A stretch of 43,001 nt of DNA from Candidatus Cloacimonadota bacterium (GTDB lineage: Bacteria; Hydrothermota; E44-bin80): NCBI GenBank assembly GCA_004375965.1, contig SOIS01000239.1, positions 1 to 43,001 on the forward strand. The letters run 5' to 3'. Below the pieces are notes generated by a model. The model was given only the letters and a program-made list of their open reading frames with translations, was not told the origin of the DNA and made no database searches. This document shows positions 8,668 through 38,766 of the stretch, piece after piece. A program made the position numbers and the translations under genes. How positions within the stretch are numbered: the stretch's first letter is position 1; each line of letters opens with the position of its first letter.

Positions 8668-10011
8668 ATGGAAAGAGAGAGGAGAAAAAACCTGGTTTTC
8701 AAAAAATTCTTCAGAGTAAGTGATAGGGTTCTCTTTTCATTACTTGTACTTTTCTCAATACTTGCTGGGTGTACACACATGATTGTTAGGGCAAAGAAAG
8801 AACAGATTCCCGATGAAAATGTTGCAATTTCCTCTATAGCAAGAATTGACTCAATTTTAGGTTTTTTCTTTGACTGGCAGTTTGGGAGGGAAAAAATTGG
8901 ATTAATGCCTGAGTTAAAGGCAGAGTTTTCTGGCAAAGTAAGCATACCCGATAGGATTTTTCTCAAAGGAACACTGAGAACTGGTGATATAGTAGAGAAG
9001 ATTAATACGTACACAATAGAAGGAAAGGAATATACCTATAATAAGGAGACACAAATCTGGGAAGGTGGTGCAAAGGGCTCTTTTCCCAACCCATTAGAAA
9101 ATCTTAAACTCATTCTCTCCTTTGGTGAATTCACGTTCATTAAATTTGATAAATATAATAATTCTGAATGTTATCTTTTTTCATTTAAACCAAATGTTTA
9201 TTTTCTCGACCCTATCGAAGCAACAAAACCAGAGGGATTTTTCTGGATTTCTGAGAAGAAAGGGCTACCACTCAGGGTAAAGGTTTCATCTGAAAGAAGG
9301 CGTTTAAACTGGGATATGAGGTTGTCTAAATTCAATAGTTTTGCAAACATAAATGTTCCTTTTAGGAGTCAAAAGATACGAGTAAGTGGGATCAAGAATA
9401 TAGAAAGAGAAGTTGATTTGATAATGGATAGATTCATTTTCCTGGGATATGAAAAGCCGGATGTCACAATAGAAAAAATCGGTGATGTAGTATTTTCTAT
9501 TAAAGCGGAGAGGCTTTCGGATTCTATAATAAGCGATATCCTCAGAAAGGGAAAAGTAGATCTTTACATAGGGACCTGGCCAAAGGACCCCATTTTTGAA
9601 TTGAAAGAGAATCGTAAACTTGTTTGTGAAAAATATGGCGAAGGAGCACAACTCTTCTTTGAGAGAGGAATGGTAACAAAACCTGTGATTGCGGTGAAGA
9701 AAATCTTATCAAGGGATGCGCTTCACTCCTTTGAACTGAAAAATGACATCCTCGGAGAATACTCGATCTATGCGTATCTTAAATCAGAGGGAGGAGATAG
9801 TCTTAAGGAGATTGTTGAAAACTACCTGGATGAGCCAATGGTTGTTGTAGTTGATAACAGAGCAGTATCAGTTTCACTTATTCGAGATACATGGCTCGTT
9901 GAAAATAAAATCCCCATTGTTAAAGGGTTGAAAGGTAACGAGTCTATACGTATATTTACAAAACTAAAAAATAAACCTTTGGAAAAAGATTACGATTTTA
10001 CATGGGATTAA
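8668..10011 (+). CDS. Hypothetical lipoprotein: LolA/LppX-like N domain plus SecD P1-like C domain
   Basis: 447-aa ORF with lipobox ILAGC. The CYLFSF...FWISEKKGLPLRV...SKFN..INVP pattern suits a LolA/LppX-like fold. IMDRFIFLGYEKPDV and DEPMVVVVDNRAVSVSLIR resemble SecD periplasmic motifs. Confidence 0.65.
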   Translation: MERERRKNLVFKKFFRVSDRVLFSLLVLFSILAGCTHMIVRAKKEQIPDENVAISSIARIDSILGFFFDWQFGREKIGLMPELKAEFSGKVSIPDRIFLKGTLRTGDIVEKINTYTIEGKEYTYNKETQIWEGGAKGSFPNPLENLKLILSFGEFTFIKFDKYNNSECYLFSFKPNVYFLDPIEATKPEGFFWISEKKGLPLRVKVSSERRRLNWDMRLSKFNSFANINVPFRSQKIRVSGIKNIEREVDLIMDRFIFLGYEKPDVTIEKIGDVVFSIKAERLSDSIISDILRKGKVDLYIGTWPKDPIFELKENRKLVCEKYGEGAQLFFERGMVTKPVIAVKKILSRDALHSFELKNDILGEYSIYAYLKSEGGDSLKEIVENYLDEPMVVVVDNRAVSVSLIRDTWLVENKIPIVKGLKGNESIRIFTKLKNKPLEKDYDFTWD

Positions 10012-10440: not shown

Positions 10441-13400
10441 ATGAATAAGATAATTTCCTGCATTCTTTTTCTTGTTATCATTTCTTCTCTTTTTGCAGAG
10501 GATATTAGTATACTCAGTTCTTCGGAAAAGGGAATTGCTTTTGAGTTCAGAGTGCCAGCTTTCTCTGTAACTCCATTATTGATTGATAATAAAGAATACA
10601 AAATAATAGATATACGTGGAACAGGTATGATAAATGACATTGGAAAACCTGCCTTGCCTGTAAGATATATTTATGTTGCTCTTCCCTTAGAAACAGAGAA
10701 TGTAAAGATCTATGTAAAGAAAGAAGGGAAACAGACAATAAAAAATGCAAGAATTATTCCTGTTTTCCAAATGACGTGGAAAGACCAGAAAATTGAAGAA
10801 GACCCTGCTATTTATGGAAAAAATGCATATTTCCCTGGTAAGGATTACGAAGTTCTTTATGACAAGATTCTTCTTCATCAAAGGATTGTTAAGATCGCCA
10901 TCTATCCATTTCATTTTAATCCCTATATTAACGAACTAATATCATATAATACTATTAAGGTAAAAATTATGTTTTTGGGTGGAAAACAAAAAGAGGGAGA
11001 ATATAGGTTTCTGGGTATCCCGAATGAGCGGAGGTTAAAAAACCTTATTATTAATTACAATAAAGGACAATCATGGAGGAAAAAGAAGAAGGTTGGTAGA
11101 GGATCACTGCTCAACTATACACCATGGTATAAAATAAAGGTTTCTGAGGATGGGGTTTATAAAATTGACTATAACTACCTGAAGAACCATAACATTAATC
11201 CTGATAATATAGATCCCCGAACAATAAAGGTATACAATGGGGGAAGTTCAGTTCTCAATGATGATATTTTAATTGTACCGGGAGAAAATGATACAATACC
11301 GTATCAGATACCCATATACATACATGGTGAGGATGATGGGGAATTTAATAAGGATGATTATATCCTTTTCTACGGTCTTTCACTTACAGGGTGGGAGAGG
11401 TGTTCTGTAAGCGTCGGTGTTCCGCTCTTTTACAATCCATTTACTGATACCAATGTCTATTGGCTAACCTGGGGAGAAAATGAAGGTAAGAGGATGGAGG
11501 TAGTAGATGGAAGCCCATCCTTCAATGAGCCGTATACTCCATCCTGTTTCAAAAAGACTATACACATTGAAGAGAATCATCTTTGTCCTTCAAAATCAGG
11601 ATTTGGTTGGGTGTGGGAAGAGGTTGTTCTCCCAACAAATGTCAGTTCAATCTCCCGTAATTATGCATTTTCCGTCAAAAATCTTTACAGTGATAGTTTC
11701 GAGGTTTTTACTGCTGTATATGGTGCTACTACTGGAACCCATTGTATTGAACTTCAGATGAAGAGTATCCCATTCAGTGATACCTGCTGGGCAGGTATGA
11801 ATTATACTGCACCATTTACATGGCTTAGCGGTGGAACTAATCTGTCTTCTGGTGATAATACTATTACAGTAAGAGTTCATAAAGGTGGTGGGGGTGATAA
11901 GATATATATAGATTATTTTGAGGTCTCTTTCTACAAGAACTATAAAGCATTTAACAATGTTCTTGAATTCTCTATTAAAGAGGATGCACCGGTTGATACA
12001 ATCTATGAATTTAATCTTAATGGCTTTTCTGAATCTCCCTATATCTTTGATATTACTTCGCCATATAACACCAAAAGGATTACAGGTTCAACATTCAATT
12101 ATGGTACTGTAAAATTTCAGATCTTTGTATCTCAGGAAGAGAAAAAGAAATGTATAGCAACGAAGGTTTTTAAGACACCCGAATCTATCACTGAAGGAAA
12201 TCCAAACTCTCTGAGAAACGTGGATAAAGCCGATTATATAATCGTTACGCATAAAAAATTCTACTATGCAGCATCGGAGCTAAGGGATTGGAGAAGAAAC
12301 CATCTTTTGGGTGTTCAGAATCCTACTATTAAGATTGTAATGATTGACGAGATATTCGACAATTTTAGTTGGGGTCTTAGTGACCCTGTTGCGATCAGGA
12401 ATTTCTTCTATTATGCAGCGAATTTCTGGGAATATCCCCCTGGGTATGTGCTCCTTTTTGGCGGAGGCTCGTACGATTATAAAAATCTATTCAAAAGCCA
12501 GGAGCCCAAAAATAGCATTCCGGTTTATGAAACAGGGGATTATGTGCATTTTCAAGAATTGATGAGTCATAATCCCTGTTATGAAGATTTTTTTACTGAT
12601 TTTACTGGGGATTTACTGTGTGATATTCCTATTGGAAGGATAACTGTTGTAACACAAGAAGAAGCAGGTGATGTAGTTAATAAGATAATTAACTATGAGA
12701 CCAATAACCTTGGTTCCTGGAAAAATAGGATCATTCTTCTCGCTGATGATGAATTTGACTATAAAGGAATTGATGGTCTCTATCGATTCCATATTTCCGG
12801 AACAGAGGGAATATCACAACTTGTTCCTGGCCCGTTTGATCAAACAAAGGTATATCTGACTGAATATCCTGGAACTAATCCCGGAGCAGTTCCGCCTGGC
12901 AGTAAACCACAAGCAAGAAGTGCCTTAATAGAGGCTCTCGATAAGGGTGCTTTACTCGGGACATTTCTTGGACATGGGAACCTGAGGCAGCTAACACACG
13001 AACTTGTTTTTCATAGAGCTGATGTTGGGATGCTGGAGAACGATTACAGGGAACCATTTTTCTATTTTGGCTCCTGCAGTGTAGGCGATTTCGACAGAGC
13101 TGAAGAGGAAAGTATTGCGGACCTTTTGCAGAAAAGTTGTAGAAGGGGTGCAATTGCAACGTTAGCTTGCACAAGGACTTCTGGTTACTCCAGTATCACT
13201 GTACTTGGGAAAGAACTTGTTACTAACATACTTGGAAACAAAAATGCCACACTTGGTGATGGTGTATTTCTTTCAAAAAAGAATGCAAATTTTGGTAAAA
13301 CATATGCATTCTTTGGTGATCCTGCAACACCTTCTTTCCCTGATTCAATTGGTTTTCAGGCAACAATCAGTAGTGAAACCCTTGTTGGAGGAAGGAAAAT

Positions 13401-14373
13401 ACTGATTGATGGTCAGACAGATGATCCGGGATTCAATGGATTTCTATTTGCAGCAGCATATGACCCTATAAAAAGAATAGCCCATCCAGTTCCCACCACT
13501 TCAGACACGATTCGTTATAACCTTCCAGGTAATTCCATCTTTAAGGGTATCTTCAACATAACAGGTGGAAAAATAGATGCTGCATTTTTTGTCCCAACCA
13601 AGCTTGATTCTGGAAATACAGGAAGAATTAGTATGTATATCTGGGGTGATGCAAAGGAAGGCAGACGAAGTCTTGATTCCCTCATAACAGGTATTGATGA
13701 TACACTTTCTACTGATTCAATTCCACCCGACATTGAGATATACCATAGTGGAAAACTTCTTGGAGACGGAATGTCAATTCCCAGTGATGCAGAAATCATA
13801 GGCGTTCTGGAAGATGAGAGTGGAATTGATATAACTGGTAGAGAAAATAGATCAATATACCTTGCTATCAATGAAGATTATACTCATATAAAAAAGATAA
13901 ATGATTATTTCTTCTATGATATTAATAGCTCGACAAAAGGTTCGTTCAGGTATGCTCTTGGGCTCGAGTCAACTATGAAGACTGTTAGGTTGGAGTTTAC
14001 CTGCTACGACAATTGTGAAAACCAGGCTGTTAAAGTTCTTGACTTAAATGTTTATAGTGGAGAGGAATTTAGTCTAAGTAATGTATATAATTTTCCAAAT
14101 CCCTTTAAGAAAACCACATATTTTACATATTATCTTAGCCACCGGAGTTCTGTCACACTTACTGTGTTCACCATTACTGGGAAAACCATTTATAAAAAAA
14201 ACATTGTTTGTGAACCTGGTTTTAACAGGATTTTATGGGATGGGAGGGATGCAGATGGTGACAGGATAGCTAATGGTGTCTATTTTTATAAAATAAAGGC
14301 ACAAGCATCTGATGCACAGGATAATTTCCAAAGTAAAGCAGAATATAGAGGAAAGATTGCAATAGCTCGATAA
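10441..14373 (+). CDS. porU: Type IX secretion sortase PorU-like C25 (gingipain-family) peptidase
   Basis: Signal peptide, propeptide (GKPALP), WYKIKVSEDGVYKI, DDYILFYG, IFDNFSWG..DPVAIRNF, IGRI, ADD, catalytic GHG and SC, C-terminal VYNFPNPF...WDGRDADGDRIANGVYFYKI (FlgD-Ig/CTD); followed by porV. Confidence 0.88.
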   Translation: MNKIISCILFLVIISSLFAEDISILSSSEKGIAFEFRVPAFSVTPLLIDNKEYKIIDIRGTGMINDIGKPALPVRYIYVALPLETENVKIYVKKEGKQTIKNARIIPVFQMTWKDQKIEEDPAIYGKNAYFPGKDYEVLYDKILLHQRIVKIAIYPFHFNPYINELISYNTIKVKIMFLGGKQKEGEYRFLGIPNERRLKNLIINYNKGQSWRKKKKVGRGSLLNYTPWYKIKVSEDGVYKIDYNYLKNHNINPDNIDPRTIKVYNGGSSVLNDDILIVPGENDTIPYQIPIYIHGEDDGEFNKDDYILFYGLSLTGWERCSVSVGVPLFYNPFTDTNVYWLTWGENEGKRMEVVDGSPSFNEPYTPSCFKKTIHIEENHLCPSKSGFGWVWEEVVLPTNVSSISRNYAFSVKNLYSDSFEVFTAVYGATTGTHCIELQMKSIPFSDTCWAGMNYTAPFTWLSGGTNLSSGDNTITVRVHKGGGGDKIYIDYFEVSFYKNYKAFNNVLEFSIKEDAPVDTIYEFNLNGFSESPYIFDITSPYNTKRITGSTFNYGTVKFQIFVSQEEKKKCIATKVFKTPESITEGNPNSLRNVDKADYIIVTHKKFYYAASELRDWRRNHLLGVQNPTIKIVMIDEIFDNFSWGLSDPVAIRNFFYYAANFWEYPPGYVLLFGGGSYDYKNLFKSQEPKNSIPVYETGDYVHFQELMSHNPCYEDFFTDFTGDLLCDIPIGRITVVTQEEAGDVVNKIINYETNNLGSWKNRIILLADDEFDYKGIDGLYRFHISGTEGISQLVPGPFDQTKVYLTEYPGTNPGAVPPGSKPQARSALIEALDKGALLGTFLGHGNLRQLTHELVFHRADVGMLENDYREPFFYFGSCSVGDFDRAEEESIADLLQKSCRRGAIATLACTRTSGYSSITVLGKELVTNILGNKNATLGDGVFLSKKNANFGKTYAFFGDPATPSFPDSIGFQATISSETLVGGRKILIDGQTDDPGFNGFLFAAAYDPIKRIAHPVPTTSDTIRYNLPGNSIFKGIFNITGGKIDAAFFVPTKLDSGNTGRISMYIWGDAKEGRRSLDSLITGIDDTLSTDSIPPDIEIYHSGKLLGDGMSIPSDAEIIGVLEDESGIDITGRENRSIYLAINEDYTHIKKINDYFFYDINSSTKGSFRYALGLESTMKTVRLEFTCYDNCENQAVKVLDLNVYSGEEFSLSNVYNFPNPFKKTTYFTYYLSHRSSVTLTVFTITGKTIYKKNIVCEPGFNRILWDGRDADGDRIANGVYFYKIKAQASDAQDNFQSKAEYRGKIAIAR

Positions 14374-14422
14374 CGAAAACCAAAATACATAAAAACTTGT
14401 CTTCCAGATTGCCTTTTTTTGC

Positions 14423-14451
14423 TTGACATTTTTGGATTTTGTTGATATTAT
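14423..14451 (+). promoter_or_regulatory. Sigma70 promoter upstream of porV
   Basis: TTGACA-N17-TATTAT with extended -10 TG. Confidence 0.8.
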
Positions 14452-14485
14452 AAAAAAAAGAAAAGTAGTTGAAAAGGAGGGAAAA

Positions 14486-15490
14486 ATGAAAGGACTAATA
14501 AAAATAACAATCGTTCTCATATTTATTATTACTCTGTCAACGTTACAATTGCATGGATTTGCATCAGAAGCGGGGGCTATATTCCTGACTATTTATCCTG
14601 GTGCAAGACCCAACGGTATGGGAGGAGCGTTTGTTGGATTAGCGGACGATGCCCTTTCGACATTTTATAATCAGGGTGGAATGGCATTTATAGAGTCAAG
14701 AAATTTTTACCTAATGCATGCAAACTGGCTTCCTGGACTCTACCCTGGTATGTACTATGATATTGTTTCCTATGTGAACCCAATAAAAGGTTGGGGAACT
14801 ATAGGAGGGAACATAATCTATCTTACAACAGGAGAGACAGAGGCAAGGGATGACCAAGGTAATCCTGTTGGAACATTCAGAACATTTGATGTTGCATTTT
14901 CCTTAGGTTATGCGACAAAGATGAGTCCTTTTCTGGGGCTTGGAGTTGGAGCGAAATTTATTTATAGTTATCTTGCTCCTCCTGAAATTGTTGAGAAGGT
15001 TCTTCATATGAGAGGTGGAACAGGTATAAGTTGGGCGGTTGATATTTCTGCACTATACCATACTCCAATACGGGGTTTAAATCTTGGTGCCTCACTGCAG
15101 AATATCGGTCCTTCCATTCAATATGCACAAAGTGGTAATAAGGACCCATTGCCCAGAACACTGCGACTTGGTATAGCTTATAAACTTTTTGATACTGAGA
15201 CAAATAAATTAAATTTTCTTGCTGATATTACGAAGGTTGTTGTTAACTGGAGCGGTGATCTAAAAAAAGAGAATGAAGATACCTGGAAATCTATAGGGAT
15301 GGAATACACATATTTCAATCTTTTAACAGGAAGGATTGGTTATTTTAGAGATTCATCAGGTAAGAGAATAGGTTTTACGTACGGTGGTGGAGTACAGTTT
15401 AAGAATTTAATATTTGATATTGGTGTGGACGATAAACTCTATGAGTTCCCTACTTCGAACTACAGATTTTCTATCTCATACAGTTTTTGA
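14486..15490 (+). CDS. porV: PorV/PorQ family outer-membrane beta-barrel
   Basis: FLTIYPGARPNGMGGA...ADDA...YNQGG, HANWLP, NIGP...DPLP..LRLG, terminal aromatic ISYSF. ATG 14486 follows AAGGAGG. Confidence 0.88.
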   Translation: MKGLIKITIVLIFIITLSTLQLHGFASEAGAIFLTIYPGARPNGMGGAFVGLADDALSTFYNQGGMAFIESRNFYLMHANWLPGLYPGMYYDIVSYVNPIKGWGTIGGNIIYLTTGETEARDDQGNPVGTFRTFDVAFSLGYATKMSPFLGLGVGAKFIYSYLAPPEIVEKVLHMRGGTGISWAVDISALYHTPIRGLNLGASLQNIGPSIQYAQSGNKDPLPRTLRLGIAYKLFDTETNKLNFLADITKVVVNWSGDLKKENEDTWKSIGMEYTYFNLLTGRIGYFRDSSGKRIGFTYGGGVQFKNLIFDIGVDDKLYEFPTSNYRFSISYSF

Positions 15491-31219: not shown

Positions 31220-31442
31220 CGTTAATGTTTCAACTAAAACCATTTATATACCTTAAAAGGAACAAAGTCAAGAAAAAAAACGAATTGTACCGCAGCACAC
31301 CCTGCCTGTACATGCATCCAGACAGGCAACACTGCACTTAAATTTTTGCTTGCTTAATTATTTTTTTTCTGTATATTGTATTAGATGGAATAAATTATTA
31401 TACATGGTGTATATCTTAATGAAAACAAAAAAAGGAGGTAGT

Positions 31443-34400
31443 ATGAAACGGTTTCTATTAATAACAGTTCTTTTTTCCCTTTTATACTTTTCGCTCTTTG
31501 GTTTTGGGGATAAACCTCTACTGGTTTTTAATGAGGATACCTCAAAGGCAAAACTTGAAGAAGGCAAACTAACCATCACTATTTCTTTGAGCAAAAAAAC
31601 TTGGGTGAGTCTTGGTGGTGAGATTACTGTAGAGGTAATAGACGCAAACGATAAAGTTCTTTTGACAAAGCAAAAGCATTTACGATTCTTCAGAAGGTCT
31701 ATAACAACAAGTTTTGTCTTTGAAACAGACCTGACAGAAGAGGAGCTATTTACCAATAGGTTGAGGATAACATTTGAAAGCAAAAAAGCAGAAGAAACGC
31801 ATATCTTTGCTATCTCCCAATTGATGGATAAACTTGAACTAATGGTTTTAGGACAGAATAATTTACTTGCTGGAAGTAAGGCATCTATAAGGATTATTAC
31901 AGTGAACTACAGAGGGAAAAAACCTATTAAGAATGCTCTTGTTGAGATCACCTTAAAAGGCGATAAGATTAAGAAAAGGCTTTTTTCGGGAAGAACAGGC
32001 AATAATGGGAGTATTGATGCCATATTTAGTATCCCTGACGTAGAGGATGAAAACACGAGAATAGAAGTATCTGCTGAAACAGCAATTGGAAGTGAAAGAT
32101 TGGAATATAGTATTACAATGAAGAAAGTATATAATATCTATCTTGTAACAGATAAACCTGTGTATCAACCAAATCAGATTATTCATATAAGAAGCTTAAC
32201 ATTACAAAAGCCATCCCTTAAAGCTGCTTCTGGTATTCCTATCACATTAAGCGTGGAAGATTCTAAAGGTAATAAGGTTTTTAAAAAGTCTCTCAAAACT
32301 GACAAATTTGGTATTGCTTCTATTGATTTTCAATTAGCAGATGAACTAAATATGGGTGATTACAGAATAATGGCAGAGATGAAGAATACGAGAGTAGAAA
32401 AAACTGTTAATGTAAAGCGATATGTCCTTCCGAAGTTTAAGATAACCCTTAAAACTAATAAGGATTATTATCTGCCATCTGAAAATTTCAAAGGGGATAT
32501 AAATGTCAAATATTTCTTTGGGAAGCCTGTTGGTGGTGGAAAGGTAAAGATCACATTAAGCAAGTTTGATGTAGGGTTCGAGGCGTTTCAGGAGATAAAA
32601 GGTGAGACAGACAGTAAAGGTAATTACCACTTTGATGTCCGACTTCCATCACATTTTGTAGGAACTCCACTTGAGCAGGGAAAGGCATTCATCAAAATAG
32701 ACATTGAAGTTACTGATAAGGCAGAACATAAAGAAAAACTGACAAACAAGAGAATTGTTGCAAAAAGTGACCTTATTATTGTGCTTATACCAGAAAGTGG
32801 TACTCTTGTACCGGGGTTTGAAAATACTCTTTATGTAATGACAACATATCCTGATGGAACACCGGCAAGGACCACTGTTACACTAAAAAGTGGTAAGATA
32901 ACATTAACTGGAAAGACTGACGACTCTGGTATTGCAGAATTTTCTGTAACTCCAGAAGAGAAAGATGGAATGGCTTTTGATGCTCAAGCAGTTGATGAGA
33001 AAGGAGCAAGCGGTAAGGCAGATGTCTATTTCTCATACGATTCAAGTCTGCCACACATACTTCTCAGAACAGACAAAGGGCTCTATAAGGTTGGTAATAG
33101 GATGAACCTTACTGTTTTATCATCGAAGAAGAAAGGCGTGGTTTACCTTGATATTATAAAGGATAAACAGACTATAATGACAAAGACTGTAAGTATAAAA
33201 AGAGGGGTAGGCAAAATTACTATTCCCTTGACCACAGATTTAAGCGGCAGTATATGGATTCATTCATACACAGTTGCTGCTGGAGAAGAGATAATGAGGG
33301 ATACAAAGGTAGTATATGTTAATCCTGCCAATGACCTATGCATTTCTATTGTTCCTGATAAAAAGATATACAAACCTGGTGAGGAAGGAAAACTCAGGTT
33401 CTCTGTAAGGGATAGGAAAGGACATGCTGTTATATCTGCACTCGGGATCAGCATTGTGGATGAAAGTGTTTTTGCACTGACAGAGATGCAGCCTGGCCTT
33501 GAAAAGGTATATTTTACACTCGAAAAGGAATTAATGGAACCCAAATATGAAATCCATTATCTATCTCCAAGAGAAATAGTAATGTTTGAAACAAAAAAGG
33601 AGATAGAGAAGAGGAAAGAGAAGGCAGCAAAGCTGCTCTTTGCTTCAGTTTCTGAGCTTTCACCTTTCAATATAAAGGAAGATAACACGAGAGAGTTGGA
33701 TAACAGCATCTATGATAAATATCAGTCAAGGGTATGGAATGACCTTTCGAAAATACGAAACGCTGTATATAGATTCTATAGCAAAGAGAAGCGTTATCCA
33801 ACAAAAGAGGAAGGTCTCTTAATACTAATTAGAAAGGATTATTTAATCACGAAGGATATTCTTGACCCCTGGGGTATGGTTTATGAAGTAGTAACAAGTA
33901 GTAATGATCTCTCTTGGTTCGGACTCTTAAGTTACGGACCTGATAAGAAAAAGGATACTGCTGATGACATAAATACAGAGGTTTATAGAAGAGGTTGGAG
34001 TTGGCAGAAGAATGAACTTTTGTTCGAAGCAGAGGAGGGTCTTGGTGGTATTGGAAGAAGAGAGATGCTTGCGAAGAAAGCAAAAGCAGCGCCTGTACCT
34101 GCAAACGGTGATAAACTTGATATTTTAACGTCATCAACAAAAACGGGCAAGAAGGAACCGAGGATAAGGGAATATTTCCCAGAAACCTTCATATTTGAGC
34201 CTGTGCTTATCACAAACAAAAAAGGAGTTGCTGTACTCCCGCTTAAATGGCCTGATTCCATAACTGAATGGAGGATAACAACTACTGCATCAACCATACT
34301 TGGACGGCTTGGAAGTACAACAAAAGGGATAAAGGTCTTCCAAGATTTCTTTGTAGATATAGACCTTCCTGTTTCACTAACGCAGAACGATATAGTTGCT

Positions 34401-36260
34401 GTTCCGGTTGCACTATATAACTATGTCAAGGGCTCACAAAAGATTAATTTGACACTCAAAAAAGAAGAATGGTATGAACTTATTGATGATGCAGAAAAGA
34501 GTGTTACTCTTGAGGAGAACGAGGTTTCTGTTATCTATTTCAGATTAAGGGCAAAGGATATTGGCAGGCATAGTTTCACGGTAAAGGCAATAGGCAGCAA
34601 GATGAGTGATGCAATTAAGAGGGAGATAGAGATTGTTCCAGATGGGAAGAAATTCGAATATATTGTGAGCGACAGGTTAGCAGGCAAGATAACAAAAAGT
34701 GTTTACATACCTGAAGAATCCATAGATGGCTCAGGTAAAATTTTTGTAAGAGTCTTTCCTGGAATGGTCAGTCAGGTTGTGGAAGGTATGGAATCAATGC
34801 TCGGAATGCCTTTTGGGTGTTTCGAACAAACCTCTTCTATTACCTATCCCAATATACTAATCCTTGATTACCTTCGAGGAATAAAGAAAATAACACCTGA
34901 GATAGAGATGAAGGCTGAACAGTATATAAATGTTGGTTATCAGAGATTACTTGCATACGAGGTTACTGGTGGAGGATTTGAATGGTTTGGTAATGTTCCA
35001 GCGAACAGGTTGCTCACCGCATATGGGCTCATGGAATTTTATGATATGGCAGAGGTGTTTGAGACAGACCCTAACATCGTTCCAAGAACACAGAGATGGC
35101 TTATCAACCAGCAGAACAAGGATGGTTCCTGGTCACCTGATAAGAGTTACTGTCATCAGGAGAGCTGGAACAGAATTCAGAAAAACAGGACGCTTCCAAC
35201 TGCATATATTCTCTGGTCGCTTGCAGAAACAGGATACAAAGGCAAGGAGTTAAAGAAGGCTGCAGCATATGTTGAAGATAATCTTGGAAAAGAAGAGGAC
35301 GCTTACATACTTGCTATTTGTGCAAATGCCTTTGTAACATACGAGCCTGATGGAAAAACCACTGAAAAGATAATCAAAAGACTAATTGATAGAAGAATTG
35401 AAGAGAAGGATGTTGTTTACTGGAGTTCAGGAATACCAACGTTCACTTACGCAAAGGGAAAGGGAGCGGATATTGAGGCGACTGCGCTTGCAACCTACGC
35501 ACTCATAAAATATAACAGGTATCCAAATATCCTGAATAAAGCAATAAACTACCTTGTAAAATCAAAGTATCCAGGTAGCACCTGGGGTTCTACACAGGCA
35601 ACATTTCTTGCATTGAAATGTCTGTTAGCATCTCTAAAAGGAAGCACGGAGAATGTGGATGCAACCGTCAGGGTCCTTATCAATGGGAAATCGAAAGAGA
35701 CCATACGACTGGATGAGGATAATGCAGATATAATGTATCTTATTGACCTTACAAAAGAGACGAAAGAAGGTAAAAATGAAGTAACGGTTTCCATTGAAGG
35801 CAAAGGAAATCCAATGTATGAGATTGCATCACGGTACTATATTCCTTGGAAACTTGTTATGCCTGAAAAGAAAAAGGATATCCTTTCTATAGATGTTGAT
35901 TATGATAAGACAACACTTACCCAGGATGATATTGTTACCTGTTCTGTGAAGATAAAAAACAATATCTTGGAATCTGCCAATATGGTTATTGTTGACCTTG
36001 GTATTCCGCCAGGATTCTCCGTTGAAACAGGTGATTTACAAAAGCTTGTTGGTAAGAAAATCGAGAAATATAGTCTGACTGCGAGACAGATTATTCTATA
36101 CATAGAGAGGATAGATTTTAAGCATCCCATTGAGTTGTCTTACAGGATAAAGGCGAAGTTCCCGATAAAGGCAAAGACACCGACATCGAAGGTTTATAAA
36201 TACTATGAACCCGAGGTGGAGACCATAGCAGAACCTATAGATATTGAGGTGAAAGGGTAA
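31443..36260 (+). CDS. Alpha-2-macroglobulin family thioester protein with GspG-like insertion
   Basis: TDKPVYQP (MG2), YVLPKF, VDESV, REYFPET, PDSITEW, thioester GCFEQ (34818-29), GYQRLL, WGSTQAT, YKYYEP. ATG 31443 after AAGGAGG; signal peptide has no lipobox. Confidence 0.93.
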   Translation: MKRFLLITVLFSLLYFSLFGFGDKPLLVFNEDTSKAKLEEGKLTITISLSKKTWVSLGGEITVEVIDANDKVLLTKQKHLRFFRRSITTSFVFETDLTEEELFTNRLRITFESKKAEETHIFAISQLMDKLELMVLGQNNLLAGSKASIRIITVNYRGKKPIKNALVEITLKGDKIKKRLFSGRTGNNGSIDAIFSIPDVEDENTRIEVSAETAIGSERLEYSITMKKVYNIYLVTDKPVYQPNQIIHIRSLTLQKPSLKAASGIPITLSVEDSKGNKVFKKSLKTDKFGIASIDFQLADELNMGDYRIMAEMKNTRVEKTVNVKRYVLPKFKITLKTNKDYYLPSENFKGDINVKYFFGKPVGGGKVKITLSKFDVGFEAFQEIKGETDSKGNYHFDVRLPSHFVGTPLEQGKAFIKIDIEVTDKAEHKEKLTNKRIVAKSDLIIVLIPESGTLVPGFENTLYVMTTYPDGTPARTTVTLKSGKITLTGKTDDSGIAEFSVTPEEKDGMAFDAQAVDEKGASGKADVYFSYDSSLPHILLRTDKGLYKVGNRMNLTVLSSKKKGVVYLDIIKDKQTIMTKTVSIKRGVGKITIPLTTDLSGSIWIHSYTVAAGEEIMRDTKVVYVNPANDLCISIVPDKKIYKPGEEGKLRFSVRDRKGHAVISALGISIVDESVFALTEMQPGLEKVYFTLEKELMEPKYEIHYLSPREIVMFETKKEIEKRKEKAAKLLFASVSELSPFNIKEDNTRELDNSIYDKYQSRVWNDLSKIRNAVYRFYSKEKRYPTKEEGLLILIRKDYLITKDILDPWGMVYEVVTSSNDLSWFGLLSYGPDKKKDTADDINTEVYRRGWSWQKNELLFEAEEGLGGIGRREMLAKKAKAAPVPANGDKLDILTSSTKTGKKEPRIREYFPETFIFEPVLITNKKGVAVLPLKWPDSITEWRITTTASTILGRLGSTTKGIKVFQDFFVDIDLPVSLTQNDIVAVPVALYNYVKGSQKINLTLKKEEWYELIDDAEKSVTLEENEVSVIYFRLRAKDIGRHSFTVKAIGSKMSDAIKREIEIVPDGKKFEYIVSDRLAGKITKSVYIPEESIDGSGKIFVRVFPGMVSQVVEGMESMLGMPFGCFEQTSSITYPNILILDYLRGIKKITPEIEMKAEQYINVGYQRLLAYEVTGGGFEWFGNVPANRLLTAYGLMEFYDMAEVFETDPNIVPRTQRWLINQQNKDGSWSPDKSYCHQESWNRIQKNRTLPTAYILWSLAETGYKGKELKKAAAYVEDNLGKEEDAYILAICANAFVTYEPDGKTTEKIIKRLIDRRIEEKDVVYWSSGIPTFTYAKGKGADIEATALATYALIKYNRYPNILNKAINYLVKSKYPGSTWGSTQATFLALKCLLASLKGSTENVDATVRVLINGKSKETIRLDEDNADIMYLIDLTKETKEGKNEVTVSIEGKGNPMYEIASRYYIPWKLVMPEKKKDILSIDVDYDKTTLTQDDIVTCSVKIKNNILESANMVIVDLGIPPGFSVETGDLQKLVGKKIEKYSLTARQIILYIERIDFKHPIELSYRIKAKFPIKAKTPTSKVYKYYEPEVETIAEPIDIEVKG

Positions 36261-36435: not shown

Positions 36436-38766
36436 ATGCAGAATTATACAGAGATAGATAATTTTATTGAGCCATTATCACAGGATCCACAATTAAGTAA
36501 ACGGGTTTCTCATATTGAAATAATAAAAGAAAAAGAAGCAGAATTTTCTGATTTTCCTTCTGATATGCATGAAACACTTATTGCAGCATTGAGGAATTCA
36601 GGAATTAAACAGTTATATAGTCACCAGATACAATCGTATTCACTGCTTAAAGAGGGGAAAAATATCGTCGTTGTTACACCGACTGCCTCAGGGAAAACAC
36701 TCTGTTACAACATCCCTGTAATTAATACTATCCTTGAGGATGAGAGCGCAAGGGCACTCTATCTTTTTCCAACAAAAGCCCTCTCCTATGACCAGCTTGA
36801 AGGTCTTGAGAAATTACTTGAAGCACTGAAAAAAGGCATAGCGACATTCACATACGATGGCGACACCCCGAAGGATATAAGGAAAAGTGTAAGGGAGAAG
36901 TCTAAGATTGTCATCTCCAATCCTGATATGCTCCACAAGGCAATTCTTCCACATCATACAAAATGGATTGGACTCTTCTCAAATCTTCGATATGTCGTAA
37001 TAGATGAACTACACAACTATAGAGGTGTTTTTGGTAGCCAGGTCGCCAATGTTATAAGAAGGCTAAAAAGGGTTTCGAAACATTATGGTTCAAAACCACA
37101 GTACATTCTATCATCAGCAACTATTTCAAATCCAGCTGAACTTGCAGAGAAACTTATAGAAGAGGAGGTTGAACTAATTGATAAAAGTGGTTCTCCGCAG
37201 GGAAGGAAATATTTTATACTCTGGAACCCACCCCTCATTGACAGGGAACTTGGCTTGAGGAGGAATTATATAACTGAAGCACAGTTTGCCACTGAGAGGT
37301 TGTTAAAACTCGGGATTCAGATAATTCTTTTTGCAAGGAGCAGGTTAAATGTTGAGATACTTACCACACGACTAAGAGAGAAATTTGAGAAAAATCCAAA
37401 AATGATCGGTAAAATAAGAGGATACAGAGGAGGGTATCTCCCAAACGAAAGAAGAGAGATAGAAAAAGCCTTGAGGGACGGGGAGGCAAGAGTAGTTGTA
37501 AGCACAAATGCACTTGAGCTGGGAATAGATATTGGTTCTCTTGATGGTGCAATACTTGCAGGATATCCTGGTTCGATTGCAAGCACCTGGCAACAGGCAG
37601 GGAGGGCAGGAAGAAAGGAGAAATCATCCATTGCTATTCTTGTTGCAAGTTCAGCACCATTAGACCAGTTCCTTATCAATAATCCTCAGTACTTATTCGG
37701 AGTATCACCTGAAAAGGGTCTTATAAACCCTGATAACCTTCTTATCCTTCTTGCTCATATAAAATGTGCTGCATTTGAATTACCTTTCCGAGAAGGGGAA
37801 CATTTTGGAAAGGAACCACTCGAAGAGGTTCTCTCGTACCTGGAAGAAAAGGGTGTTTTGCATAAAAGCAGTGGACAGTGGTACTGGACAGAAGATTCCT
37901 ATCCTGCTGATACATTCGGATTGAGAAACATCCCAAGTGAGAATTTTGTAATTGTTGACAGAACAGGAAAGAAACCAAGAAGCATAGGAAATGTAGACTA
38001 TTGTTCTGCACCGATGCTGCTACATGAAAGCGCAATCTATATTCATGGAGGGGAGCAGTATCATGTTGATAAACTTGATTTTGAGGAGAGAAAAGCTTAT
38101 GTAAAGAAGGTTTCTGCAAATTACTACACAGATGCAATAGAATACACAAAAGTGAAGGTTCTTGACAGCTTTGGTACTAAAGGTGAAGCGAGCTGGGGAG
38201 AGGTATGTGTAACAAAAAGGGTAGTAGGCTACAAGAAAATTAAACTTTCAACATTCGAAAATATTGGATTTGGTGATGTTAACCTACCTGAAAATGAGAT
38301 GCATACAACCTGTTACTGGTTTACAATTGACAAAGAAAAATTAAAAAATCTTGGGTATACGGAGGAGGCAATTGTTTACGGACTCTATGGTATTTTATAT
38401 ATAATCGGGAATATCGCGCCACTTTTTCTACTCTGTTCAAGGAGGGATATAGGAGTTCATCTTGGAGGTAAAGAGGGAGTGTGGTCTTATCAGGGTGAGT
38501 TAAGAAAGAAGGATACACAGACAATAGATGATTTTAAAAGGGGATTATATTCACCAACAATTTTTATATATGAGAACTACCCTGGTGGTGTTGGTTTTGC
38601 ATATGAACTATTCTCCATTCATCCCGAACCTCTTATCAAGGCACGGGAAGAGATACAATCTTGTTCCTGCAACACAGGTTGCCCTTCCTGCATAGGACCG
38701 TTATTTATTACCAATGTCAATGTAAAGGAGATTTCATTGAAAATGCTTGATGTTATTCTTAAATGA
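36436..38766 (+). CDS. DEAD/DEAH helicase with DUF1998 (Hrq1/MrfA(YprA)/SftH family)
   Basis: TASGKT, PTKAL, NPDMLH, DELH, SAT, ELGIDIG, QAGRAGR and C-terminal CSCNTGCPSC zinc motif. Confidence 0.93.
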   Translation: MQNYTEIDNFIEPLSQDPQLSKRVSHIEIIKEKEAEFSDFPSDMHETLIAALRNSGIKQLYSHQIQSYSLLKEGKNIVVVTPTASGKTLCYNIPVINTILEDESARALYLFPTKALSYDQLEGLEKLLEALKKGIATFTYDGDTPKDIRKSVREKSKIVISNPDMLHKAILPHHTKWIGLFSNLRYVVIDELHNYRGVFGSQVANVIRRLKRVSKHYGSKPQYILSSATISNPAELAEKLIEEEVELIDKSGSPQGRKYFILWNPPLIDRELGLRRNYITEAQFATERLLKLGIQIILFARSRLNVEILTTRLREKFEKNPKMIGKIRGYRGGYLPNERREIEKALRDGEARVVVSTNALELGIDIGSLDGAILAGYPGSIASTWQQAGRAGRKEKSSIAILVASSAPLDQFLINNPQYLFGVSPEKGLINPDNLLILLAHIKCAAFELPFREGEHFGKEPLEEVLSYLEEKGVLHKSSGQWYWTEDSYPADTFGLRNIPSENFVIVDRTGKKPRSIGNVDYCSAPMLLHESAIYIHGGEQYHVDKLDFEERKAYVKKVSANYYTDAIEYTKVKVLDSFGTKGEASWGEVCVTKRVVGYKKIKLSTFENIGFGDVNLPENEMHTTCYWFTIDKEKLKNLGYTEEAIVYGLYGILYIIGNIAPLFLLCSRRDIGVHLGGKEGVWSYQGELRKKDTQTIDDFKRGLYSPTIFIYENYPGGVGFAYELFSIHPEPLIKAREEIQSCSCNTGCPSCIGPLFITNVNVKEISLKMLDVILK

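Follow-up and report, generated by a model that had tools for sequence, protein, structure and literature searches.

What is the globular domain of a secretion-system pseudopilin doing inside a predicted protease trap? The question is raised by a 43,001-nucleotide stretch of contig SOIS01000239.1 from a Candidatus Cloacimonadota bacterium (the whole stretch is hereafter called the window), which encodes a single thioester alpha-2-macroglobulin (A2M) of about 1605 residues (P0001; Table 1). From its sequence, the gene product is predicted to belong to the A2M/TEP superfamily and to be a secreted protease trap that bears a thioester, the trapping itself being part of the prediction. Judged by hidden Markov model (HMM) matches, by profile matches to PDB sequences and by predicted fold, a segment next to its bait region is a true GspG-type pseudopilin globular domain. 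As we describe below, this module sits in the insert of the sixth macroglobulin (MG) domain, MG6, and on sequence evidence its presence is the rule in a large multi-phylum clade of A2Ms, in one to four copies.

The module peptide, DLSKIRNAVYRFYSKEKRYPTKEEGLLIL...DPWGMVYEV...FGLLSYGPDKKKDTADDI, is encoded at 33741-33974 (+), i.e., P0001 798-875 (767-844 when counted from MKRF). A first-pass annotation, made from the DNA alone, had placed it between VDESV and REYFPET and ahead of an Ala/Gly/Lys/Arg-rich segment; it is encoded exactly so, between VDESV (P0001 703-707) and REYFPET (P0001 940-946), with the Ala/Gly/Lys/Arg-rich stretch on its C-terminal side. The same annotation had read the peptide as the globular domain of GspG, the major pseudopilin of type II secretion systems (T2SS), and had named a T2SSG HMM scan and an AlphaFold–Foldseek comparison as checks, both of which bear the reading out. 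Pfam T2SSG (PF08334, gathering cut-off 21 bits) matches P0001 797-873 in the context of the whole A2M protein (E 4.7e-07, 30.3 bits) and the isolated 157-residue segment with E 7.9e-09 (36 bits). Across the 2.29-Mb, ~95% complete genome, PF08334 is matched once only, by this embedded module. Because the score of the NCBIfam GspG equivalog TIGR01710 on the segment (16.6-24.1 bits) lies far under its cut-off of 88.85, the segment belongs to the domain family yet is not a GspG orthologue. The DPW..Y and S.G.D(6)DD motifs are invariant or nearly invariant among relatives. When an alignment of the segment with 17 relatives was searched as a profile against all PDB sequences, nine matches were obtained at E<=1; the best eight (E 1.8e-9 to 3.3e-4) are all GspG/PulG/EpsG/XcpT, and the ninth (E 0.65) is unrelated. 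In these alignments the loop leading from the helix to DPWG is 11-12 residues shorter than in GspG.

Structure prediction gives the same answer. In an AlphaFold2 model of the isolated 218-residue segment, residues 40-130 of the segment reach a predicted local distance difference test (pLDDT) score of 86-94, and residues 137-207 stay below 50. The module keeps a pLDDT of 86-93 within a 1047-residue model of P0001 54-1100, which has a mean pLDDT of 82.2 and a predicted template-modelling (TM) score of 0.67 and is all-beta and MG-like outside the insert. A Foldseek search of the PDB with the module model places major pseudopilins (GspG/PulG/EpsG/XcpT) at all of ranks 1-14, followed by type IV pilins, the top match being 3g20_A (E 9.2e-4, target TM-score 0.57; 0.61 for 3gn9). 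In a wide search with VIA-align, independent of Foldseek, EpsG (4lw9_A) comes out on top (Z 8.5, root mean square deviation 3.5, 99 aligned), ahead of PulG (5wda_A; Z 7.4), and the type IV pilins that follow have Z<=5.8; a protein atlas gave weak leads only (0.77), all GspG-like. The module corresponds to GspG residues ~26-130. Since the structural alignments begin at residue 26 of full-length pseudopilins, the module represents the globular part without leader or alpha1N, in agreement with the earlier statement that no prepilin N-terminal helix is present. Indeed, Pfam N_methyl has no match in the A2M protein at E<=1, and the sequence that precedes the module is rich in Lys and Glu.

The Asp-rich calcium-binding loop named in the first-pass annotation is likewise intact at the ligand positions of PulG and OutG. 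According to the available text of a 2026 preprint (PMC13081927), calcium in PulG/OutG is held by the side chains of D117, T/S122 and D125, possibly D124, and by the backbone oxygens of residues 114 and 119. In SYGPDKKKDTADD, the residues Y, D, K, T, D and D are spaced as PulG/OutG positions 114, 117, 119, 122, 124 and 125. The pattern G.D(6)DD is found in 75 of 78 segments (the window and 77 genome loci), and the residue equivalent to PulG 122 is T in 52 of the 78, N in 20 and S in 4. As the ligand spacing is identical to that of PulG/OutG and is kept in 75/78 segments, calcium binding by the module is strongly implied by sequence. Every invariant column of the module falls in the core or in the calcium loop, and this speaks for a structural role rather than for a specific surface for binding.

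We then consider where the module sits. In the available sections of the A2ML1 paper (PMC9156758), a single uninterrupted MG6 insert is made up of LNK and the bait region, the conserved R730-P734 plugs a channel built by MG2, MG3 and LNK and retracts after cleavage, LNK together with the N-terminal bait remnant is thought to enclose the captured protease, and in complement proteins the anaphylatoxin domain stands in for the bait region. In a phmmer search of P0001 560-1100 against the PDB, the alignment of RIREYFPET begins at residue 730 of human A2M and at residue 16 of the C3b alpha' chain, just past the convertase site; the human A2M bait we take to be residues 690-728 in that PDB numbering. 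Based on these plug alignments and the A2ML1 layout, the order of the insert, read from sequence and model, is LNK, variable linker, GspG-type module, disordered bait, plug PRIREYFPET and MG6's C-terminal half (MG6b), with the module in a C3-like position; the equivalence to the C3 anaphylatoxin insertion, proposed at first reading, is thus upheld. The plug pattern R..R..FPET is invariant among relatives. The first part of the linker is of low confidence (pLDDT 48-59 at about P0001 ~741-760, model 660-700), and the segment after the module has a pLDDT of 24-31 in the 1047-residue model and below 50 in the isolated segment. Its length is variable as well, the distance from DD to R.YFPE ranging from 42 to 147 residues (median 65; 75 segments) in a gappy part of the alignment. 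By sequence and model, this segment is the probable bait proper. Because the long disordered bait lies only C-terminal of the module, a single bait cut keeps the module attached to the N-terminal fragment; to set it free, the short variable linker ahead of it would have to be cut as well.

Table 1. Features of the A2M gene and of its MG6 insert (window positions; residues in P0001 numbering)
Feature	Window position	Strand	P0001 residues	Remarks
A2M open reading frame (P0001)	31350..36260	+		1636 codons counted from upstream TTG
Predicted signal peptide MKRFLLITVLFSLLYFSLFGFG	31443..31511	+		Read by eye from translation
MG2 (Pfam)			263-355	
MG3 (Pfam)			357-431	
MG4 (Pfam)			493-549	
A2M_BRD (Pfam)	33063..33479	+	572-710	MG5 / N-terminal half of MG6; E 4e-12
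LNK start VDESVFAL.EMQPGLEKVYFTLEKELMEPKYEIH	33456..33581	+	703-744	Columns nearly invariant; LNK role from A2ML1 (available sections of PMC9156758)
Variable Lys-rich helical linker before module	33582..33686	+	745-779	~35 aa
GspG-type pseudopilin globular module	33687..33977	+	780-876	alpha1C-like helix, DPWG, beta strands, calcium loop
T2SSG (PF08334)			797-873	
Calcium-loop motif S-Y-G-P-D-K-K-K-D-T-A-D-D	33930..33968	+	861-873	Continues as S-Y-G-P-D-K-K-K-D-T-A-D-D-I (33930-33971)
Disordered hypervariable segment, probable bait proper	33984..34148	+	879-933	~55 aa
BR-C plug motif RIREYFPET	34161..34187	+	938-946	
A2M (Pfam)	34185..34454	+	946-1035	C-terminal half of MG6 onward; E 2.3e-18
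Thioester domain TED_complement	34767..35624	+	1140-1425	E 3.1e-41
Thioester motif GCFEQ	34815-34829	+		Within TED_complement
A2M_recep (MG8 / receptor-binding-type)	35973..36227	+	1542-1626	E 4.7e-15

To assess how widely the arrangement occurs, we searched at several depths. A word-index search with the module region retrieved 22 proteins at E<=0.001 among 745 candidates, of which 15 (P0002-P0016) are near relatives (48-96% identical, 1602-1670 residues); precomputed annotations record PF08334 on 14 of these 15, and three ~30% relatives without recorded PF08334 still have DPWG...S.GPD...DD. The A2M plus PF08334 architecture is already visible in precomputed Pfam annotations. One of the near relatives, P0005, a 1605-residue A2M of this clade, bears in a public source the name 'type II secretion system protein GspG [candidate division WOR-3 bacterium]'. 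The name was probably given in error on account of the embedded domain, and our finding corrects the naming of at least this A2M.

A profile search of 1.84 billion representatives gave 2979 matches at E<=1e-3 (446 at <=1e-10, 25 at <=1e-30). Far from the singular oddity that it had seemed, the module recurs, when a module HMM is applied, at least once in 150/150 of the best of these 2979 representatives, each time embedded in an A2M: 54 of the 150 proteins carry one module, 36 carry two, 45 carry three and 15 carry four. Among the same 150, 108 are at least 1300 residues long, and CxEQ is also present in 102 of the 108. In species-representative genomes, a relative is encoded by 140 of 159 pattern matches. 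The 80 loci retained from these have labels that include WOR-3, Stahlbacteria, Zixibacteria, Hydrogenedentota, Chthonomonadales/Armatimonadota, Planctomycetota, Verrucomicrobiota, Myxococcota, Acidobacteriota and Moduliflexus, among others; Cloacimonadota is the label of the nearest ones (62-75% identity). After L066 and L073, which lack a suitable open reading frame, and L078 (27 residues only) had been dropped, 78 segments were left, window included, and Pfam T2SSG matches 64 of these 78, from many phyla. Of 151 genomes sampled in the window's own phylum, 18 match at E<=1e-10 (source genome counted), covering all 5 other members of the source family and 14 of 76 genera.

Relatives of 1850-2140 residues (P0021-P0023, P0024, P0037, P0039 and others; one is partial) carry two to four tandem GspG-type modules. 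In the long P0021 and P0023 and the partial P0022, which is labelled Pyrinomonadaceae, three tandem modules and, after them, CarboxypepD_reg precede the plug and lie wholly inside the bait insert. In three- and four-module proteins, 150 of 155 modules have their nearest neighbour in another protein, usually at the same array position (of the 33 modules that are third of three, 21 pair with one of the same kind), which argues that the tandem arrays are old and position-specific.

What, then, may the module do? By analogy with A2ML1 and C3, we propose tentatively, at a probability of about 0.45, that its likeliest role is that of a calcium-stabilised folded stopper and steric element lying N-terminal to the bait, in a trap that works by plug retraction. 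The plug would fill the channel formed by MG2, MG3 and LNK. Beyond this channel and against the MG ring, where C3 has its anaphylatoxin domain, would lie the folded module, probably stabilised by calcium. Too large to pass the channel, it would present the bait. A protease cut in the disordered bait would free the plug side, which would retract, and the ensuing rearrangement would let the GCFEQ thioester capture the protease. The module would stay on the N-terminal (LNK) fragment, adding bulk round the captured protease in a monomeric trap, and the two to four modules of relatives would add further bulk or reach.

A two-chain prediction of the module against MG1-MG6a plus LNK (MG6a being the N-terminal half of MG6) scored 0.60 (runs 0.55, 0.64 and 0.60), the best of three controls scoring 0.01. 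The runs share at least 85% of contacts, and the partner has a pLDDT of at least 83. The mark used for calibration is reached by 58 of 80 solved complexes and by 2 of 110 mismatches; scores of 0.60 or less that still reach it come from only 7 of the 80 solved complexes and from both passing mismatches; the result is graded as weak support. In our view it modestly raises the odds of an anaphylatoxin-like packing. Several points weigh against the stopper proposal. The docking score is of this weak grade, and the two chains belong to one polypeptide; and position-specific arrays of two to four modules fit a single docking site poorly, hinting at a role of their own in binding, spacing or sensing. 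The strictly kept calcium loop, moreover, could mean calcium sensing rather than mere stability.

The calcium loop also leads to the alternative that survives best, that of a calcium-gated bait, in which low calcium would unfold the module as in PulG and create extra protease-sensitive bait or a looser lock, thereby tuning the trap to its surroundings. The ligand pattern in 75/78 segments speaks for it, as does the behaviour of PulG, which without calcium is disordered and degraded in vivo, but OutG is stable without calcium, both as given in the available text of the preprint (PMC13081927); the motif alone is therefore no predictor of calcium dependence. We regard such gating as unlikely to be the module's main function, although it is compatible with the stopper proposal rather than exclusive of it.

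T2SS substrates are often hydrolases. The module might act as a recruiting decoy whose pseudopilus-like surface draws proteases that by nature contact or degrade pseudopilins or pilins, such as the T2SS exoproteases of competitors, to the bait; a genuine GspG fold does adjoin the bait, and several modules would give avidity. However, the alpha3-beta1 loop of PulG/OutG (residues 69-83), tied to secretion specificity in the available part of the preprint (PMC13081927), is the very region shortened by ~11-12 residues in the A2M modules, which weakens the decoy idea, and outside the core and calcium-loop residues no surface patch is conserved. We consider a decoy function rather unlikely.

A third alternative takes the complement parallel further. 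Two cuts, one in the linker and one in the bait, would free a soluble pseudopilin-like domain of ~100 residues as a signal or effector. The position of the module does match the anaphylatoxin domain of C3/C4/C5 topologically, and lower-confidence variable segments flank it on both sides (P0001 ~741-760 and 879-933). Yet the N-side linker is short and partly helical, no processing site is conserved across relatives, no receptor or partner is evident among the neighbouring genes, and the tandem arrays with CarboxypepD_reg in relatives are unlike a released hormone-like unit; release is, in our judgement, improbable. It would be equally a long shot to regard the module as the bacterial functional counterpart of the anaphylatoxin, with the trap serving as a sensor besides an inhibitor and activation by a foreign protease exposing or releasing one to four calcium-loaded pilin-like units that would signal danger, recruit partners or lure proteases able to recognise pseudopili. 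If that were true, the coupling of a thioester trap to a folded effector would have arisen in bacteria independently of, or before, animal complement.

That the module lets the A2M dock on or join the machinery of a type IV filament, be it a T2SS pseudopilus or a type IV pilus, appears very improbable. A secretin, a PilC/GspF-type gene and a prepilin peptidase do occur in the genome, one of each, but the module lacks a prepilin leader, the hydrophobic alpha1N and an N_methyl match, is internal to a 1605-residue protein encoded outside any gsp/pil operon, and scores far below the GspG equivalog cut-off (16.6-24.1 against 88.85 bits). Polymerisation of the module, or its entry into a filament, is rejected for want of alpha1N. 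The remaining alternative, a chance resemblance or a misread ordinary macroglobulin domain, is negligible and is refuted by the Pfam score above cut-off, the GspG-only PDB profile matches, pseudopilins ranking first in two structure searches and T2SSG matches in 64/78 segments.

The rest of the protein conforms to the A2M plan. The macroglobulin series is present (MG2, MG3, MG4, A2M_BRD and Pfam A2M), and the GCFEQ thioester motif is unchanged across 41 sequences. Translation likely starts at the ATG at 31419 or 31443 (MKRFLLITV...), giving the ~1605 residues that compare with 1602-1670 in the nearest homologues. The N-terminus reads as a signal peptide, from which we infer that the A2M is secreted; it contains no Cys and hence no lipobox. 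The neighbouring genes have housekeeping functions or are otherwise unrelated. Upstream of the gene lie genes for an acylphosphatase, a phosphoribosyltransferase, a DUF3467 protein and a two-component pair, and downstream those for an MrfA/Hrq1-type helicase, an AMP-binding enzyme and a GT4 glycosyltransferase; this neighbourhood contains no pbpC (transglycosylase/transpeptidase) and no gsp/pil genes. The A2M gene is the only TED-bearing gene of the genome.

Further observations concern the genome and the rest of the window. Along with its secretin, PilC/GspF-type gene and prepilin peptidase, the genome shows no PF08334 pseudopilin besides the A2M module. The helicase directly downstream of the A2M gene, at 36436-38766 (+), is a 776-residue protein with DEAD/Helicase_C, HRQ1 winged-helix and MrfA Zn-binding domains and has no evident link to the A2M. 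At 10441-15490 (+), a PorV homologue comes directly after a 1310-residue Peptidase_C25 protein that has a C25 propeptide and, at its C-terminus, a FlgD_ig-like domain; by sequence, the two look like the PorU/PorV pair of a type IX secretion system, here in a lineage outside the Bacteroidota. An open reading frame of 447 residues at 8668-10011 (+) has no Pfam match at E<=1e-5.

To our knowledge, a folded domain at the MG6-insert position was previously known only in complement C3/C4/C5. Our literature search, outside whose range lay subscription journals and supplements, found no description of a pilin-like or pseudopilin insert in an A2M, and a folded pilin-like insert is not mentioned in the available text of a 2026 review (PMC12939704) or in a 2018 abstract on bacterial A2Ms. 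A2M-family proteins are triggered through the MG6 insert, and this bacterial clade has a different folded domain there, conserved across many phyla. The design is common in many bacterial phyla that have received little study. The clade thus offers a natural experiment in the control of a spring-loaded state by a folded plug next to the bait, presents a new non-filament use of the pseudopilin fold, and bears on the relation, and the debated transfer, between bacterial and animal thioester proteins.

Comparison with known systems sets the window A2M apart from each of them. Two types of bacterial A2M are recognised, according to the 2018 abstract. Type I (E. coli ECAM/YfhM and Salmonella A2M) and type II (MagD) are bacterial A2Ms like the one described here, and the type I enterobacterial A2Ms also share the thioester; however, the window A2M has no lipobox Cys, no pbpC neighbour and no bMG-type Pfam matches, in contrast to the ECAM/YfhM type. 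With GspG (PulG, EpsG, XcpT and OutG) the module has in common the globular fold, the DPWG core motif and the calcium-ligand spacing. It differs in having neither a prepilin leader nor alpha1N, the hydrophobic helix for polymerisation, in its alpha-beta loop, shorter by ~11-12 residues, and in being part of a 1605-residue protein encoded away from any gsp operon and scoring under the NCBIfam equivalog cut-off.

In sequence, the window A2M (31443-36257) is nearer to metazoan CD109, A2M, A2ML1, TEP1 and C3 than to the solved E. coli and Salmonella A2Ms. In a full-length search of PDB sequences, CD109 is the best solved relative (E 3.7e-60), followed by human A2M (E 1.3e-55), A2ML1 (E 8.1e-54), mosquito TEP1 (E 2.1e-49) and C3 (E 4.8e-45); the E. 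coli and Salmonella A2Ms are not in the best 60 of 73 full-length matches, nor are ECAM and the Salmonella A2M among the 35 PDB matches to P0001 560-1100. The monomeric metazoan inhibitors of the A2M family (human A2ML1, CD109 and A2M, and mosquito TEP1) share with it the MG ring, LNK and a bait insert in MG6, the R-x-Y-F-P plug, CUB/TED with CxEQ, and MG8. Their baits are unstructured or short, whereas the insert of the window A2M, a bacterial protein with a plain signal peptide, spans ~235 residues and contains a folded GspG-type domain. For A2M bait-region domains in general, the review (PMC12939704, available text) gives 66-126 residues, with bacterial ones smaller than eukaryotic ones.

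The closest architectural parallel concerns C3/C4/C5. Their ANATO domain is helical and rich in disulphides, whereas the module has a pseudopilin alpha/beta fold with a calcium loop and no Cys, and Pfam ANATO finds no match in the window A2M. Between module and LNK there is no furin-type processing site, in contrast to the complement proteins, and where complement has a single convertase site the window A2M has a long unspecific bait. C3/C4/C5 likewise carry a small folded domain in the MG6 insert, followed by a segment that threads the MG2/MG3/LNK channel, and their activating cut falls C-terminal of the folded domain, as predicted for the window A2M.

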